Source: Planctomycetota bacterium (GTDB taxonomy: Bacteria > Planctomycetota > GCA-002687715 > DRQF01). From it: a DNA stretch of 50,728 nucleotides. Each line of letters begins with the position of its first letter. The first letter of the stretch is position 1. Where the stretch lies: contig JAZGFI010000197.1 of assembly GCA_036479435.1 (NCBI GenBank), positions 1 to 50,728 on the forward strand, in the 5' to 3' direction. The position numbers and the translations under genes are program-made. Below the pieces are notes generated by a model. The model saw only the letters and a list, made by a program, of their open reading frames with translations, did no database searches and was not told the DNA's origin. Below, piece after piece: positions 25,461 through 36,525 of this stretch.

Positions 25461-25922
25461 ATGGACAAGTGGCATCAAGGCAAGAAGACGAAAGCGACGC
25501 TCGCGCTCGCGGCACTCGTTGGGGTTCTGTGGGGGCTCGGATGGATCGACGGAGCGCAGGCTGAGCCGATGCTCACGCTGCTCGGCTTCACTGCGGTGGG
25601 CACGATGGCGGCGAAGGTCACGCGCACGGCAGCGGCTCGCGTGGCGGTTGTGTGTATGCTCGGACTGGGCGTCTCGGCGGCGCCCGCAAGCGCCGCTCCA
25701 CAGCTCGATCTGCTCGGGCTGTTCAACCTGGGGTTCGATGAGATCTCGATCGGCAACCCAGAGTGGGGCGCCGGTCTCGGCATCCGCCGCAAGCCCGGCA
25801 CGCTGATCACGATCGATGCGGAACCGACGGGCATTGATCTGCTCAAGCCGCTGTGCAAGACGCCGTGGGTCAAGGACCGCGTTACGTTCTTGTGCGCGGG
25901 GGATGAGTTGGCCGGCCTCTAG
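25461..25922 (+). CDS. Membrane protein, possible holin/lysis accessory
   Basis: GKKT followed by 2-3 hydrophobic segments. Confidence 0.6.
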   Translation: MDKWHQGKKTKATLALAALVGVLWGLGWIDGAQAEPMLTLLGFTAVGTMAAKVTRTAAARVAVVCMLGLGVSAAPASAAPQLDLLGLFNLGFDEISIGNPEWGAGLGIRRKPGTLITIDAEPTGIDLLKPLCKTPWVKDRVTFLCAGDELAGL

Positions 25923-26284
25923 AATAAATCCCAGTCGGACTCATTCTCGGCCGGCCACTGATCGGCCGCGCTGATATGGCCGTGCTCCTCGTGCGCGACG
26001 GGCTCGAGGTGGTACGCGTTACAGCATCCGCGGTTCCGGCACTCGCGAATGTGGTCGAGGTCGCATCCGTCGGGGATCGGGCCGCGCACGATCACATACG
26101 CGTAGCGGTGCGCCCGTACGCGGCCGCTCGGTACGCCCGGAAAATCCCACGCCACGAACCGCCCGTAGCCGAACGTGCGAGTCCCGGTGAACTCGATACA
26201 CGCGGACCCTGCGACCGGGCGCAGCTTCGACAGGAAGCGCGCCACGATCACAGGGTGGTCCCACGGTAGGCGGGGGAGGGGCAT
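25919..26284 (-). CDS. Free-standing HNH endonuclease
   Basis: CIEFTG...GYGRF...AHRYAY...GPIPDG..LDH..CRNRGCCN..HLE. Confidence 0.88.
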   Translation of the reverse strand: MPLPRLPWDHPVIVARFLSKLRPVAGSACIEFTGTRTFGYGRFVAWDFPGVPSGRVRAHRYAYVIVRGPIPDGCDLDHIRECRNRGCCNAYHLEPVAHEEHGHISAADQWPAENESDWDLF

Positions 26285-26366
26285 TGCTAGCGGGGCGTGT
26301 GGTACAGCACGTAGCCGAGCAGGGCGCCAACCAAAACAGATATCACGAGTACTGCACAGTACAACA

Positions 26367-26891
26367 TCACGATCCCCCTTTCTCTTCCGGCTTCGACTCG
26401 GTGTGGATCGCGAGGCACGCCGGACAAGTGGCGACCGTTGGGCCCCACCGAACGCCGTGAACACATGTGTCTGTTGAGCGTGGGCCCGCCTGCATGAGCG
26501 CAGCCTGCTCGATCTGATCGGCCTCGGCTGCGTACGCGCGACCGCGGGCTATTGTCCCCGTGCCGGTGCGCATCTCGGCCGCCGCTTTGCGAAGCGCAGT
26601 CAACGCCTGCCGCAGATGAGGGCTGAGCGTGGGCTTGGGTGCGGGGTCGCGGGGTCGCCAGTAGTCGTCATGCAGCTGACCCAGCATCTCCTGTAGCCAC
26701 TCCCGGACTACAGGGTCACACTTCTCCGTAGCATCGCGTAGATCCCCCGTGCCGTAGCGCGCAGCATACCGGCGCACGAAGTCGGCAGGTGTATAAGCGC
26801 CTTGTCTCTCGATGGCCTCATACCGAGCAGAGTGCAGGTGTCTGGCGATCAGGATGAGGTAGTCTTGGGTTTGCATTGCGGTGGTGGGCAT
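26367..26891 (-). CDS. Hypothetical protein
   Basis: RBS GAGGAG; C-terminal CVHG...CPAC. Confidence 0.65.
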   Translation of the reverse strand: MPTTAMQTQDYLILIARHLHSARYEAIERQGAYTPADFVRRYAARYGTGDLRDATEKCDPVVREWLQEMLGQLHDDYWRPRDPAPKPTLSPHLRQALTALRKAAAEMRTGTGTIARGRAYAAEADQIEQAALMQAGPRSTDTCVHGVRWGPTVATCPACLAIHTESKPEEKGGS

Positions 26892-27178: not shown

Positions 27179-27301
27179 TTTCAGCCCCCGAAGAGACGCT
27201 CAGCGGAGTGCCAGCCGCACGAAGCGGCGAAAGCGATATTCCACGCCACCACTAGTGGCATGGTCACGGAGCGGATTGCTTTCAACAGATCAACCAGCAT
27301 A

Positions 27302-30300
27302 TCAGTCCTTCCTGTACCGGATGCCACGCCAGCCACCCGTGGCCCTGATTGGCCAGTCAGCACACCACGGCTCCCCTGCGCTGAGCAGCCGCTCCACCTC
27401 CTCGATCGACCCGCTGCCCACCCTCACCTCCACGTTGACCTCATCATGTGTGTGCAGCACCACCGGGTAACCGGCCGCCTCGACCCGCAGCATACCGCCC
27501 GCAAATATGTCGCGGGCCGTTGCCTGCACGATATTCTCGAAGGTTTTGGCGCCGCGGGTGTCAACGCGCACCCACGCCGTTTGGTGCTTCGGCGTCAGGT
27601 AGCTGAGTATCCGCTTCGCTTTGCCATACCAAATCCCGTCGCGTACGCGGGGGGCTCGGTACGGGATGCAGCGACCCGACAGCAGCCGGCAGTACAGCAC
27701 GTCATCGCGTACAAAGAACACGTGGCCTCGCACAGTGTGTTCGCTGCCCGGTTGGTCGACTGCTGCTATTGCTGCGTCTTCCAGCGCGTACCAGAAGTTG
27801 ATGATGGAGGGAGACTCGCGACGCCACGCCTTGACGCCTTCCTCGATCTCAGCGTCAACCATCCACTCGTCGGCGCCAAAGTTCTTCCACGCGTCTACCC
27901 AGCCTCCGAATCCACTGTTGTGGACGATCAGGTGACCCGAGTCGGTTTTAATCGTGAATCGGTTCCGTGGCCCCGCATGTGCAATGTCGTAGACGGTGTC
28001 GCAGCGTGTCAAGTTCTTTCTGCATCGCGCCGACACTTCGTTTGTTGAGCATGTTCTCACGTCGGGTGACGAACCGGATGTTCCCAGCTTCGTAATTTCC
28101 GTTGACGTCGATGCGGTCCATCTCGAGTTCTGGGCAGTCCCAGCCTTCCAGGGTGCGGACGTGCGCCAAGAATGGCTTCTTACTATCGCGCCACGCTTGG
28201 CACACTTCGATGCCTCTGCCGCCGTAGTTTCGGAACATTTTATTCCGCTCGTTATGGCAGCGGCCAACTGCAGCAGCGAGGCGGTTACATAGGCGACGAC
28301 GGTGGTCGTCTTCAGGCATAATGTCCGCATGACCCCAAAACATCTTGACGCCTTTAGCCGTTTTGCGTTTTGCGCAAACAGTGCAGCGGGTGCTCTTACT
28401 GCGCCGAAGGTTTGAGAAGCTGACTGCGTGTTCTGTCGCCCCACATGAGCACTGCACGATGATGAAGCGCTCACGCGAGCGGCACTCTGTACGGATAACG
28501 GTAAGTTCTCCGAACCGTACTCCAGGGCGCGGGTCAGGAAATTTCTGTTTGAAACGAGTTCGCTTGCCACCTTCCAAGAATGCCGCAAGCTGATCGGATG
28601 ATCCGGGGTCACTCGCGTACCATCCAGGTCGATCACGTCCCGCTCGCCCTTGTTGATCACACCCGCGTGTTCTACCCATTCGATTCCGTCCCATAATTCG
28701 TCGCCCAGTTGAACATCTGCGATTCGAGTGTAGCCCCGATTCGTGAGCACCAAAGTCTCTGCAGTAAAGCAAGCAAGCTCCGCGACCTTGCCTTTCTTTC
28801 GTAGAGGGTGGTGCATGCCGGTCTCACGCTTGTGCCGTGCGAACTCCTCGAAGGGGACACCGCTCGACTTGCTAGCAGACATCTCGTAGATCTTGCCGTG
28901 CGTACGGAACACCTCCATGCGCCACTCTTCGCCCGCAAGGAATGCAGCCACCACGGCTTCGATGCTGTCGAGATCCGCGCTGATCAGCTCGTTACCGGGC
29001 GCGGCTCGCAGAAACGATCGGAGGCACCCGGCAATCGCCGTGAGCGCGTCGCCCCATAGCAGCTCAACCGTATCGAGATCCCCCGACATGATCGCGGGCA
29101 GACACGCCTCGGCGGCATCGATGCCCCACTCAGCGGGCCGGCTACCGTGCGTAAAGCAACTCGGGCAGAACCACAACCCCGACCAGCGCACCGCGTCGCA
29201 GCTCGTGCAGCGTACGACATCGGGACCACCGGCCGGCAAGTTCTGTGGCTGCGCGCCGCCGCCGGCCCACCGCCACGTACGGCACGCGCCCGCGTACGTG
29301 TAGAGCCCGCGGATACGGTCATCTATCTCGCTCATCTCGAAGAGCATTGACGCCGTCTTGGTCACACTCTTGGACCCCATGACAACGCGAATGTCGAGCA
29401 CGCGGCGAACGTCCGGCGGTAAGTCGGCACGGGCGAGCAGGACCGGGAGCGAGTCCTTCGTGATCCCGTCGGGCGTTGCTACCCCGCGCGTAGCTAGCCA
29501 CGCCTTCATCGCATCGAGCTCGTCGGCCGTGCCTACTGCGCCGCCGGTGATCTGTGATAGCTCTGCGTGATAGCGTTTGGCTGCCTGTGCTATTATGCGG
29601 CGGGCCGCTAGCACTGCAGCCCGATCGCAGTACACGCCGCGGGCGTTGATGCGTTGATCGGCTAGAAACACCTCGGTCTCGAACGGCGACAGATCTGCGA
29701 GTCGCGCCGATACGTCATCTTCCGCAGCGATGTCGTCCAAGCAGTAGCTGTACAACCGCGCGAAGTCGTCGGGTGCGTCGGCCGGCGCGTAGCGCAGCCG
29801 CTTGTCCTTCTTGGTCGGGCTGCGCGGCTTGCTCACCTTGAGCATTACCCGGTGGCCCTCGGGGTCTTTACGGGCCGCGGTTTGGAGTGCCGCCGCGCAT
29901 GCCTCGAGCTTTCGCGGGAGTGTGGCCGAGCCCGCCTTGGCTGCCGTGTCTCGTATCTGCTCGATCGGAAGCGGGGGCCACCCCATGCGCGGAACACAGA
30001 TGTTCACCCACACGCAGAATTCGAAGAACGAGTTAACCGCTTCGACGAGTCCACCCCGGGTAATGTGTTCGAACAGCTCCACAGGGGGTGGGTCGCCTGG
30101 GTGCCACAGCCTGCGGCCCAGCCCATCCTTGAGATCGTAGGCAAGGCAGAGCACCTCGGCGCTTGGATGCTCGGTGTAACGCCACGCCCCCACGCCTTTG
30201 ATGCCGGGCTTGCCTTTCTTGAGCGGCTGCCACTTGCCGAGCTGCGGGTGCCACACGTAGCCGGCTTCGCTGTACGTCTCGAAGTCGATCGACGCGAGCA

Positions 30301-30373
30301 CGGTTGACACGCCGAGACCGGCGGGTAGCTGCTGGCCGTAGAGGTAGAACGCACAGGGGGTGACAGCCGTCAC
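27302..30373 (-). CDS. Family A DNA polymerase with 3'-5' exonuclease, intein-containing (1023-aa precursor, 738 aa spliced)
   Basis: IDFET exonuclease motif, TWRWAG..QPQNLP, ADLDSIE (A), RKKGKVAELA/SGFGG (B), ENIVQATARD, HTHDE (C). Confidence 0.95.
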   Translation of the reverse strand: MTAVTPCAFYLYGQQLPAGLGVSTVLASIDFETYSEAGYVWHPQLGKWQPLKKGKPGIKGVGAWRYTEHPSAEVLCLAYDLKDGLGRRLWHPGDPPPVELFEHITRGGLVEAVNSFFEFCVWVNICVPRMGWPPLPIEQIRDTAAKAGSATLPRKLEACAAALQTAARKDPEGHRVMLKVSKPRSPTKKDKRLRYAPADAPDDFARLYSYCLDDIAAEDDVSARLADLSPFETEVFLADQRINARGVYCDRAAVLAARRIIAQAAKRYHAELSQITGGAVGTADELDAMKAWLATRGVATPDGITKDSLPVLLARADLPPDVRRVLDIRVVMGSKSVTKTASMLFEMSEIDDRIRGLYTYAGACRTWRWAGGGAQPQNLPAGGPDVVRCTSCDAVRWSGLWFCPSCFTHGSRPAEWGIDAAEACLPAIMSGDLDTVELLWGDALTAIAGCLRSFLRAAPGNELISADLDSIEAVVAAFLAGEEWRMEVFRTHGKIYEMSASKSSGVPFEEFARHKRETGMHHPLRKKGKVAELACFTAETLVLTNRGYTRIADVQLGDELWDGIEWVEHAGVINKGERDVIDLDGTRVTPDHPISLRHSWKVASELVSNRNFLTRALEYGSENLPLSVQSAARVSASSSCSAHVGRQNTQSASQTFGAVRAPAALFAQNAKRLKASRCFGVMRTLCLKTTTVVAYVTASLLQLAAAITSGIKCSETTAAEASKCAKRGAIVRSHSWRTSAPWKAGTAQNSRWTASTSTEITKLGTSGSSPDVRTCSTNEVSARCRKNLTRCDTVYDIAHAGPRNRFTIKTDSGHLIVHNSGFGGWVDAWKNFGADEWMVDAEIEEGVKAWRRESPSIINFWYALEDAAIAAVDQPGSEHTVRGHVFFVRDDVLYCRLLSGRCIPYRAPRVRDGIWYGKAKRILSYLTPKHQTAWVRVDTRGAKTFENIVQATARDIFAGGMLRVEAAGYPVVLHTHDEVNVEVRVGSGSIEEVERLLSAGEPWCADWPIRATGGWRGIRYRKD
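27917..28771 (-). mobile_element. Intein (285 aa) in polymerase motif B
   Basis: Begins CFTAETLVLT, block B TPDH, block F VYDI, ends IVHN followed by Ser+1. Confidence 0.95.
27948..28694 (-). CDS. HNH-type homing endonuclease overprinted in the -1 frame inside the intein (start uncertain)
   Basis: GVRFGELTV, QCSCG, RC.N...YGGRGIEVC..W, MDRIDVNGNYEAGNIRFVT..EN..NKR. Confidence 0.88.
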   Translation of the reverse strand: MGRNRMGRTRGCDQQGRAGRDRPGWYASDPGSSDQLAAFLEGGKRTRFKQKFPDPRPGVRFGELTVIRTECRSRERFIIVQCSCGATEHAVSFSNLRRSKSTRCTVCAKRKTAKGVKMFWGHADIMPEDDHRRRLCNRLAAAVGRCHNERNKMFRNYGGRGIEVCQAWRDSKKPFLAHVRTLEGWDCPELEMDRIDVNGNYEAGNIRFVTRRENMLNKRSVGAMQKELDTLRHRLRHCTCGATEPIHD

Positions 30374-30576
30374 CCGTAGTAGACGCGCAGCAGAGACGTA
30401 CCGGTCAGCGACAACACCCCCACGAGGTAACCCCGCCAGAACGCGCGCCTCTTCGCCTTTCGGTGGTGCTCCTCAAGGTAGTGCCAGTTGGCAACGGGCG
30501 TGATGCGCACTCGTTTATCCGTTGACTCTTCACGTTCATCGAGTCGAGTGATCTCGGGTAGATCGCTATAGCCCAT
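30370..30576 (-). CDS. Small protein with C-terminal hydrophobic segment
   Basis: MGYSDLPEIT...; GTGA overlap with the polymerase start. Confidence 0.55.
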   Translation of the reverse strand: MGYSDLPEITRLDEREESTDKRVRITPVANWHYLEEHHRKAKRRAFWRGYLVGVLSLTGTSLLRVYYG

Positions 30577-35855: not shown

Positions 35856-36013
35856 TGGACGAGGCGCGGGACGTACTACTTATTAGGATCGGAGTAGCGC
35901 TGGCGGTGCTGTTTTGCGAACCCGCCGACAACCCGGTGGCTGTGGGGCTTCTCGATGCTGTAAAGGACCTCGAGAAGGCGATGAAAGACGCTGCAGCTGT
36001 GGGGCCCTCATGA
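35852..36013 (+). CDS. Small hypothetical protein
   Basis: ATGA overlaps on both sides. Confidence 0.55.
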   Translation: MMDEARDVLLIRIGVALAVLFCEPADNPVAVGLLDAVKDLEKAMKDAAAVGPS

Positions 36014-36525
36014 ACGCGCTAAACGACTGGGCGAGGCGCCACGCCATAAGCCCGACGGCTTGGGCAGAACTGAGGGCACTACTCGACGAAGCGCCAGCGC
36101 TCGTTGCGCCGCATCCAGGTGATAAGAGCGAGGGGGCGTCGCAGTCGGAGATACGCCTAGACGCCCCGCGCGTAGGCTGCGCACTGTGGCGTAACAATGT
36201 GGGCGTCGCGTTCGATCGCGACATGGTGCCGATCCGGTTCGGGCTGGCGAACGATAGCAAGCGGCTGAACGAGAACGTCAAGTCGAGCGATCTGATAGGC
36301 GTCTGCCCTGTGGTGATCACACAGTGGCACATCGGACGCACGTTGGGTGTGTTCACCGCTGTCGAGTGCAAGCGGCTTGACTGGCGGTGGCATGCTACGA
36401 AGCGGGAAACAGCGCAGCAGCGTTTCCACAATATCGTGCGCGCGGCCGGGGGTTACGCAGGCTTCGCCCGCAGTGCCCGCGAGTTTCGCGACATCATCAC
36501 ACCTAACGCGGTGAGTGTCGGATGA
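36010..36525 (+). CDS. VRR-NUC domain nuclease
   Basis: SE...Q, LWRNNVG, RFGLAN, SSDLIG, AVECK, Q..F. Confidence 0.88.
   Translation: MNALNDWARRHAISPTAWAELRALLDEAPALVAPHPGDKSEGASQSEIRLDAPRVGCALWRNNVGVAFDRDMVPIRFGLANDSKRLNENVKSSDLIGVCPVVITQWHIGRTLGVFTAVECKRLDWRWHATKRETAQQRFHNIVRAAGGYAGFARSAREFRDIITPNAVSVG

Follow-up and report, generated by a model that had tools for sequence, protein, structure and literature searches.

The stretch of DNA analysed here (the window) is an entire contig of 50.7 kb with a guanine-cytosine (GC) content of 61%, one of the 299 contigs (C197) of a 5.47-Mb bacterial draft assembly labelled Planctomycetota bacterium. This contig carries terminase, portal, sheath, tape-measure, baseplate, helicase, primase, exonuclease and single-strand-binding genes of a tailed phage. 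The present analysis focuses on its gene for a family-A DNA polymerase, which is interrupted by an intein, and on a second open reading frame (ORF) that is located within the DNA of this intein, on the same strand and in another register, and that encodes an endonuclease-like protein. Hereafter, the frame of the polymerase and of its intein is called frame A and the +2 (or -1) frame that carries the endonuclease-like ORF is called frame B. The frame-A features (pLDDT, predicted local distance difference test, refers to the structural models described below) are the following:

27302..30373, minus strand: precursor ORF of the family-A DNA polymerase, 1023 amino acids (aa) including the intein, with its stop codon at 27302-27304
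28772..30373, minus strand: N-extein, 534 aa, ending in GKVAELA
27917..28771, minus strand: intein, 285 aa, with Cys1, TPDH at residues 55-58, VYDI at residues 259-262, a terminal His-Asn and Ser+1 (SGFGG)
28496..28771, minus strand: N-terminal splicing lobe, A residues 1-92, with Cys1 of block A and TPDH of block B, pLDDT 92-95
28502..28591, minus strand: transition zone, A residues 61-90, reading SWK.A..L.SN...L..AL in frame A and FLEGGK.TRFKQK in frame B
28007..28495, minus strand: frame-A linker, residues 93-255, stop-free, not conserved as a protein and predicted to be disordered
27917..28006, minus strand: C-terminal splicing lobe, A residues 256-285, VYDI...HN, pLDDT 92-93
27305..27916, minus strand: C-extein, 204 aa, starting with SGFGGW; phrog_10285 and phrog_7766 span residues 820-1023 of the precursor

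The precursor ORF matches DNA polymerase PHROGs (phrog_17, phrog_10285 and phrog_7766, with E-values from 4e-74, obtained with phrog_17, to 2e-36) and its Pfam DNA_pol_A match is sub-threshold (30.1 bits for a cut-off of 34.3). The intein is inserted in what is probably motif B of PolA, for which the sub-cut-off DNA_pol_A match just upstream is the sole support from the tools. A megablast search of the polymerase gene against phages gave zero matches, and an Rfam scan of positions 27300-30400 with E-values up to 1 detected neither a group I intron nor another RNA. The junction reads GKVAELA↓SGFGG (the arrow marks the insertion point), and the homologous intein-free polymerases of Acinetobacter phage Scuro and Shewanella phage SppYZU01 have an uninterrupted GKVAELASGYQGG, which supports the boundaries of the intein. 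Cys1 is invariant both in the 11 aligned inteins and in the 14 full loci described below. T55 and H58 of block B and the C-terminal H284 and N285 are also invariant among the aligned inteins, and position +1 is occupied by Ser in two loci (the window and L003) and by Cys in the 12 remaining ones. An AlphaFold2 (AF2) model of the frame-A intein, based on the 11-sequence alignment, has a pLDDT of 92-95 at residues 1-92 and 256-285 and of 25-47 at residues 95-253. Among the matches of this model listed by Foldseek, the 32 best rows by E-value (within listed ranks 1-42) are all inteins or other Hint-family domains, with E-values from 2e-3 to 0.12 and a probability of 0.95-1.00 for 29 of the 32; they include the Ssp DnaB, DnaX, gp41-1 and RecA mini-inteins as well as Vint, hedgehog autoprocessing and BIL domains. 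With sequence profiles alone, the Pfam Vint and Hint_2 families and TIGR01445 all stay under their cut-offs. Taken as a whole, the sequence supports a class-1-type intein in a phage family-A DNA polymerase, with predicted splicing that would give a polymerase of 738 aa. A previous examination of the locus based on the DNA letters alone (the sequence-only reading) had proposed this intein, with the same coordinates, length of 285 aa, splicing residues and 738-aa product, and every one of these sequence statements was reproduced.

The second frame of the same DNA includes three features:

27948..28679, minus strand: frame-B (+2/-1) ORF, 243 aa, from a conserved ATG (B codon 31) to a TAA at 27948-27950
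28359..28532, minus strand: frame-B residues 50-107, beta-barrel module with four invariant Cys (C77, C79, C99 and C102), pLDDT of at least 90
28038..28337, minus strand: frame-B residues 115-214, His-Me (beta-beta-alpha-metal) nuclease-like region with D188-R189, Y196, N200, R202 and N212

A second in-frame ATG is located at 28692-28694 and the stop-to-stop open frame extends to 28772, the ORF thus ranging from 243 to 274 codons depending on its start. As the sequence-only reading had stated, this -1 frame is open, stops at 27948 and contains the HNH-type motifs GVRFGELTV, CSCG, YGGRGIEVC..W and DRIDVNGNYEAGNIRFVT..EN..N. The third frame contains 17 stops over the intein. An AF2 model of the frame-B protein, started at the conserved ATG and based on a 31-sequence alignment, has a mean pLDDT of 83; most of residues 50-230 are at 90 or more, residues 1-27 are below 50 and about the first 50 residues are predicted to be disordered. 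From N- to C-terminus, it is made of a beta-barrel, a helical region, a beta-beta-alpha unit (strands 186-189 and 201-204 and helix 206-212, pLDDT of about 97) and a C-terminal helix. Structure comparison of the Cys4 barrel retrieved Tudor, KOW and CarD-like rows with middling Z scores of 4-5.5, and this barrel is presumed to be a DNA-binding or zinc module. The folded parts of the A and B products overlap by only about 10 codons at each end, each frame being mostly read where the product of the other is disordered.

This organization was also found in other phages. A tblastn search with the frame-B ORF in GenBank phages retrieved 776 records, the best of which are Vibrio phage 97.13 (55.7%), Pseudomonas phage MR14 and many Salmonella Jersey-like phages. 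These best matches underlie genes annotated as DNA polymerase or as intein-containing polymerase precursor. In MR14 and in Salmonella phage Ent2, the nuclease match is two bases off the register of the annotated polymerase coding sequence, and the unannotated record of Vibrio phage 97.13 displays the same offset relative to a 1192-codon open frame. A scan of viral contigs with the single protein detected no relatives, and alignment-seeded scans of viral and genome contigs yielded further loci. In the top 15 loci by tblastn score and in one partial locus (L017, rank 20), the nuclease match is nested in a long ORF, with a register one base downstream. The lower-scoring loci are mostly devoid of a long ORF across the match and mostly correspond to free-standing ORFs of about 170-300 codons. 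Fourteen full loci (the window, L001-L004, L006-L013 and L084) were compared. The nucleotide identity of their inteins is 46-72%, with the exception of the pair L002/L084 (95%), and the frame-B proteins share 36-50% identity with that of the window for 10 nested rows (alignment A2) and 47-56% for three phage rows (alignment A1). PHROGs confirm a DNA polymerase for 10 of the long ORFs. In all 14 loci, frame A is devoid of stops, frame B stays open between codons ~30 and ~275 and the third frame contains 13-38 stops, even at a GC content of 45-49%. The sequence-only reading had called for a comparison with homologous inteins; the out-of-frame layout was found throughout, with both frames open in the 14 diverged loci. 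No Hint domain was found among the 12 long frame-B ORFs of distant matches, and no in-frame form was found among five longer relatives (427-2000 aa), in which the nuclease either stands alone with several modules or is fused to unrelated domains; this absence is weak evidence. One of the loci, L084, belongs to a contig of an assembly of Taishania pollutisoli (Bacteroidota) and its polymerase intein shares 95% DNA identity with the intein of Salmonella phage Ent2; this contig seems more likely to be phage DNA that strayed into the assembly than a Bacteroidota prophage.

The openness of both frames was compared with chance expectations. When the B codons of the window were resampled according to the codon usage of the exteins, frame A contained a mean of 5.8 stops and was open in none of 1000 trials. 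The same resampling for each locus with the codon usage of its own exteins predicted 2.2-9.2 A stops and left frame A open in 0-35 of 1000 trials. A more lenient test, in which the synonymous codons of the ORF itself were permuted, gave an open frame in 54 of 1000 trials for the window and in 0-257 of 1000 for the individual loci. Furthermore, the frame equivalent to frame A is open in 16 of the 16 nested loci (including one duplicate and two partial loci) versus one of 128 free-standing relatives, the median of which is 7 stops; this comparison included the free-standing matches of at least 120 codons, shorter ones being left out. The single free-standing relative with an open +1 frame, L091, was discarded as an upstream run-on of a RecT gene.

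The two frames also differ in the regions where their translations are conserved. Averaged over the 12 other loci (L084 was left out as a near-duplicate), the frame-A identity to the window is 0.36-0.53 for residues 1-90 and 0.54-0.74 for residues 256-285. Between the lobes, it is 0.13-0.38, versus 0.14-0.34 for the non-coding frame. The frame-B identity to the window is 0.23-0.67 over about residues 76-270. The identities at codon positions 1, 2 and 3, computed over 78 locus pairs, are as follows:

N lobe, A register: 0.62, 0.70 and 0.39
Centre, B register: 0.57, 0.64 and 0.35
Centre, A register: 0.63, 0.36 and 0.56
C lobe, A register: 0.71, 0.81 and 0.42
A residues 61-90, either register: flat, 0.46-0.56

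The wobble position thus moves from A position 3 in the splicing lobes to B position 3 in the centre, where the most variable position is A position 2, that is, B position 3. From this switch, we conclude that the amino acids of frame A are selected only in the splicing lobes and the middle of frame A only for its openness, the amino acids of frame B being selected in the middle. In the transition zone, where both translations are conserved among the subgroup of the window, the flat identity appears to be the pattern expected of a double constraint on the sequence. For the closest pair, L002 and L084 (49 differences), the centre shows 17 synonymous and 9 nonsynonymous changes in frame B versus 9 and 23, respectively, in frame A. 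In the window, the GC content of the centre at B positions 1, 2 and 3 (0.57, 0.46 and 0.65) tracks the pattern of the phage genes (0.64, 0.47 and 0.73). The proposal of the sequence-only reading that both frames are maintained by selection is therefore borne out by the 14 loci open in both frames and by the switch of the wobble from A position 3 to B position 3.

Several lines of evidence relate the frame-B protein to nucleases. It matches PHROGs annotated as HNH endonuclease (phrog_374, E-value of 5e-36, as well as phrog_3377 and phrog_2081, the whole range being 5e-36 to 1e-18), in agreement with the HNH-type endonuclease that had been proposed for this frame. A profile of 31 relatives gave weak matches in PDB to I-HmuI (E-value of 0.074) and PacI (E-value of 0.35), both on D-R-I-D-x-N-G-N-Y-E-P-G-N-x-R. 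With VIA-align, a structure comparison that does not use Foldseek, PacI (3m7k_A) aligns over 80 residues with a root-mean-square deviation of 3.0 and a Z score of 5.1, which is in the range that the tool calls middling. Sixteen columns are invariant and include the PacI-type D-R...Y...N.R motif: Y196, N200 and R202 are invariant, D188 is nearly so and N212 is found in at least 90% of the 31 sequences. N200 and N212 would correspond to the structural Asn and to the metal-binding Asn/His of the helix in His-Me nucleases. PacI is a restriction endonuclease of His-Me finger group 20 (PDB 3ldy/3m7k) that lacks the general-base His, the role of which is taken over by a loop Tyr, according to the accessible text of the reference (PMC5714182). 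In the hidden Markov model (HMM) alignment, this Tyr pairs with Y196. The frame-B protein would therefore resemble PacI, as described in that text, by its beta-beta-alpha-metal core without general-base His, its loop Tyr and the aligned D-R...Y...N.R. It differs from PacI, a restriction enzyme, by its N-terminal part, and the sequence similarity is marginal (E-value of 0.35), a likeness that falls short of a group assignment. By analogy, the frame-B protein is a candidate PacI-like His-Me nuclease with a putative activity. Free-standing relatives of frame B are common in phages and prophages and start at the G-x-R-F-G-x-L-T-V core. One of them, the metagenomic free-standing protein P0001 (609 aa), carries five to six tandem N-terminal G.RFG.LTV...CxCxCG...SCGC modules and two nuclease-like domains; since it repeats the N-terminal module, the family is modular.

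How frame B could be translated was examined from its start region. B codon 31 is ATG in 10, GTG in three and TTG in one of the 14 loci. Five loci also have an ATG at B codon 33, preceded at 5-7 nucleotides by GGAGG or AGGAG. The last B-frame stop is located at codons 23-29, just upstream of the start, in eight of the 14 loci. These B starts overlie the conserved frame-A motif LWDGxEWV. The two ATGs of the window arise from TTA-TGG and GAA-TGG, TTA representing 2.2% of the Leu codons and GAA 25% of the Glu codons of the phage. Zero promoters or terminators were found inside positions 27800-29100. Since there is no promoter-like site inside the gene, translation of the nuclease probably takes place on the mRNA of the polymerase. 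The uncoupling of the nuclease dose from the expression of the polymerase, put forward by the sequence-only reading, is hypothetical.

The distribution of the element and its insertion points are informative about its mobility. The polymerases nearest to that of the window are intein-free (Acinetobacter phage Scuro, 52% and 786 aa; Shewanella phage SppYZU01, 50% and 806 aa), the N-extein sharing 52% identity with the Scuro polymerase by tblastn. Despite this 52% protein identity, the 15 bases at 28772-28786 on the N-extein side (GTCGCGGAGCTTGCT) are identical in the intein-free Scuro locus (L164); the identity of GTCGCGGAGCTTGCT could reflect a conserved target site or just the constraint on the motif. 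Among Jersey-like phages, megablast detected 379 GenBank records that match the 600-nucleotide N-extein flank of Ent2 and 165 that match its intein DNA, a search that would miss strongly diverged inteins. Judged from these sequences, intein-free alleles in close relatives fit mobility. The comparison of the junctions of the window (27917/28771) and of the other loci revealed that related inteins occupy two points that are four codons apart: GKx↓C(E/Q)L (site a) and GKxxxLx↓(S/C)G (site b), L001, L002, L084 and L010 being compared with L003, L004, L006-L009 and L011-L013. The site-a inteins are scattered among the site-b ones in both the Hint and the nuclease trees, which suggests repeated shifts of the insertion point. 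Neither co-divergence nor module exchange is claimed from the comparison of the two trees, which are too weakly resolved.

Taken together, we consider it highly probable that this element is an intein with a homing-endonuclease gene in the +2 (-1) frame of its own DNA, including the splicing, the internal initiation and the homing that we infer for it. The precursor would be translated through the stop-free linker of about 160 residues that joins the two Hint lobes and would splice to the 738-aa polymerase. Frame B would encode a separate protein of about 243 aa, made of a disordered N-terminal extension overlapping the coding region of the Hint N-lobe, the Cys4 barrel, the PacI-like nuclease and the C-terminal helix. 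Its translation would start internally on the polymerase mRNA, at the codon that overlies LWDGxEWV. This protein would cut intein-free polymerase alleles, the repair of which would copy the whole element in (homing). As to its origin, a free-standing nuclease gene of a widespread phage family may have invaded a mini-intein.

Besides the blind spot of megablast for strongly diverged inteins and the middling Z score of PacI, several observations weigh against this proposal. Frame B matches no Pfam family with E-values up to 1 and no NCBIfam family, and Foldseek with the full frame-B model gave no PDB match at E-values up to 0.001, its top rows being chromo and Tudor domains aligned on the N-terminal barrel. 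The canonical general-base His at the end of strand 1 is absent, this position being Arg189 in all 31 aligned sequences; because of this absence, the proposed nuclease activity rests on the PacI analogy. The conserved Trp codon of frame A imposes in part the start at codon 31, as any codon ending in A, G or T followed by TGG provides it, and the Shine-Dalgarno-like sequence of the window is weak (GGGA, 9 nucleotides before the ATG). The directly checked intein-free polymerases of Jersey-like phages are a small sample of two: SETP13 (733 aa, i.e. 1032 - 299) and K1ind1 (698 aa). Finally, the Hint-lobe tree and the nuclease-core tree agree only in broad outline, the positions of L008 and L010 being exchanged between them.

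Other explanations of the two open frames can be considered. As the window is a contig of a draft assembly of 299 contigs, two compensating sequencing or assembly indels could have shifted an ordinary in-frame endonuclease out of frame. This is extremely unlikely: the same offset is found in 14 of 14 independent loci, including the finished isolate genomes of Salmonella phage Ent2, Pseudomonas phage MR14 and Vibrio phage 97.13, the lack of stops in frame A goes far beyond chance, which is not expected of an artefact, and neither the five longer relatives nor the 12 long frame-B ORFs include an in-frame form. Ribosomes could also shift twice, from A to B and back to A, and thereby produce a canonical in-frame intein with an internal nuclease domain, an idea suggested by geometry only, the B-coded domain lying between blocks B and F at the usual place of intein endonucleases. 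If this were the main route, stops in the middle of frame A could be tolerated, whereas the 16 loci examined all lack them; moreover, there is no conserved slippery site at either junction and the B stop lies inside block F, so that we give such a double shift almost no credence. A single -1 slip, by a fraction of the ribosomes between the Hint N-lobe and the nuclease core, would produce a fusion of the N-extein, Hint-N and nuclease that terminates at the B stop and is perhaps freed by N-terminal cleavage. Frame B is indeed the -1 frame of A, the window has a heptamer of the X_XXY_YYZ type (AAATTTC) at A codon 77, just ahead of the nuclease core, heptamers are also found at codon 76 in L001 and at codon 75 in L012, and about the first 50 residues of the ATG-started protein are predicted to be disordered. 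However, such heptamers are found in only four of the 14 loci, are non-homologous and different in sequence, and one is at codon 41, whereas a start codon is present at B codon 31 in 14 of 14 loci, five of which have a strong GGAGG or AGGAG together with the codon-33 ATG. This slip is therefore improbable.

More generally, the synthesis of the nuclease could be mechanically tied to the translation of the polymerase, either by a -1 slip to a Hint-N/nuclease fusion or by frame-A ribosomes that throttle the internal start, a possibility that we regard as doubtful. In the slip variant, the fusion may borrow the splicing lobe for DNA binding or for its own release. If true, the N-terminal extension of the nuclease, of about 55 residues, would be overprinted de novo on the splicing domain, and the arrangement would be a built-in dosage device rather than two genes sharing DNA. 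It could also be argued that the frame-B ORF is a relic or has been repurposed, the intein being now inherited vertically after loss of homing: the catalytic His is absent, and the element is present as a single copy in the assembly of the window, with no empty allele. Yet the ORF is intact in 14 of 14 lineages at 36-50% (A2) and 47-56% (A1) identity to the window, its wobble pattern is that of purifying selection, its 16 invariant columns keep the PacI-type D-R...Y...N.R motif, presence and absence vary among close relatives and site-a inteins are scattered among site-b ones, which makes a relic very unlikely.

In canonical bifunctional inteins such as PI-SceI, the intein polypeptide itself includes the endonuclease domain, which is produced in a 1:1 ratio with the host protein. 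Here, the nuclease region likewise lies between blocks B and F, whereas the sequence predicts a separate translation product. In-frame HNH inteins of phages are cited in the accessible text of a preprint (Gosselin, Arsenault, Gogarten 2025, bioRxiv 10.1101/2025.01.02.630785), which also reports inteins of actinobacteriophages whose homing endonuclease is endonuclease VII-like and located "in reading frame 3", as well as antisense LAGLIDADG and VSR-like genes in inteins. Its authors propose that a free-standing endonuclease invaded the intein and that horizontal transfer is ongoing. As far as this text shows, the actinophage inteins resemble the one described here by the same strand, the same frame offset and an in-frame middle without recognisable structure. 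They differ by their endonuclease, which is endonuclease VII-like (IPR004211), whereas frame B here resembles PacI and belongs to no Pfam family. Furthermore, that survey, as accessible, concerns PhagesDB and the polymerase that it lists is Pol III alpha, whereas the present element interrupts a family-A polymerase of other phages. Set against the actinophage inteins, the ORF of the window starts about 55 codons into the N lobe and ends inside block F.

A second preprint (Phillips, DeSimone, Gogarten 2026, bioRxiv 10.64898/2026.09.14.751524) describes, in its accessible part, a cyanobacterial dnaX intein with a LAGLIDADG homing endonuclease in the +2 frame and credits Gorbalenya 1998 with the first proposal of intein endonucleases encoded by an alternate ORF. 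According to the same part, the dnaX intein shares with the present one a +2 ORF over a disordered in-frame linker, frame-dependent selection, a sporadic distribution and intein-free alleles, and its authors propose the secondary invasion of a mini-intein, as we do here. It differs by its cellular host (cyanobacteria), by the gene (dnaX) and by an endonuclease that is LAGLIDADG and not His-Me, the word "HNH" being absent from the accessible text. The ShiLan case is also similar: an insertion without stops in the frame of the host gene contains, in its third frame, an HNH-type gene with an internal start a few codons in. ShiLan is devoid of splicing domain and the insert stays in the protein, whereas Hint lobes flank the overprinted gene here; the ShiLan paper does not mention "Salmonella". 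Our literature searches, with most subscription journals outside their scope, retrieved only these two preprints and the ShiLan paper and found no PolA/PacI-like intein lineage of Jersey-like or related phages. The dual-frame layout of inteins is therefore already described, and this nuclease family with this host gene is an addition to a recently described kind.

None of the three annotated records examined (MR14, Ent2 and Ijeoma) includes the nuclease ORF among its annotations. According to the depositors of Ent2, the intein of the polymerase codes for splicing domains only. In Salmonella phage Ijeoma (L169, 1108-4206), the whole 1032-aa precursor is annotated as "endonuclease", a name that probably came through phrog_93. 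In 10 of the 11 loci tested, positions ~3-290 of phrog_93 align with the frame-A intein and even with its unconserved linker; since its profile matches both intein and linker, phrog_93 was seemingly built from intein-bearing precursors. The stop-free linker enters databases as meaningless protein, and a phrog_93 match has probably led to the misnaming of at least one whole polymerase as "endonuclease".

In the usual textbook view, splicing and homing are both carried out by one and the same intein polypeptide. The present element would indicate that splicing and homing can be divided between overlapping genes and remain so over deep divergence, the identity of the nuclease frame to the window being as low as 36%. 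It occurs in cultivable and widely used phages, as 165 GenBank phage records match the Ent2 intein DNA. The Jersey-like phages of Salmonella and E. coli would thus offer a tractable system for the expression of an embedded homing endonuclease and for the cost of an intein to an essential polymerase when the nuclease is translated separately. The same system bears on whether free-standing nucleases make new mobile inteins by invading mini-inteins.

Two other ORFs of the window are related to endonucleases by their matches. A 203-aa ORF (35914-36522, plus strand), located between the helicase and primase genes, matches phrog_93 "endonuclease" at profile positions 310-438 and no Pfam family. A free-standing gene for a 181-aa HNH endonuclease of another family (25922-26464, minus strand; Pfam HNH_3, E-value of 7e-8; phrog_826, E-value of 7e-20) is located about 840 bases downstream of the stop codon of the polymerase gene, on the same strand.

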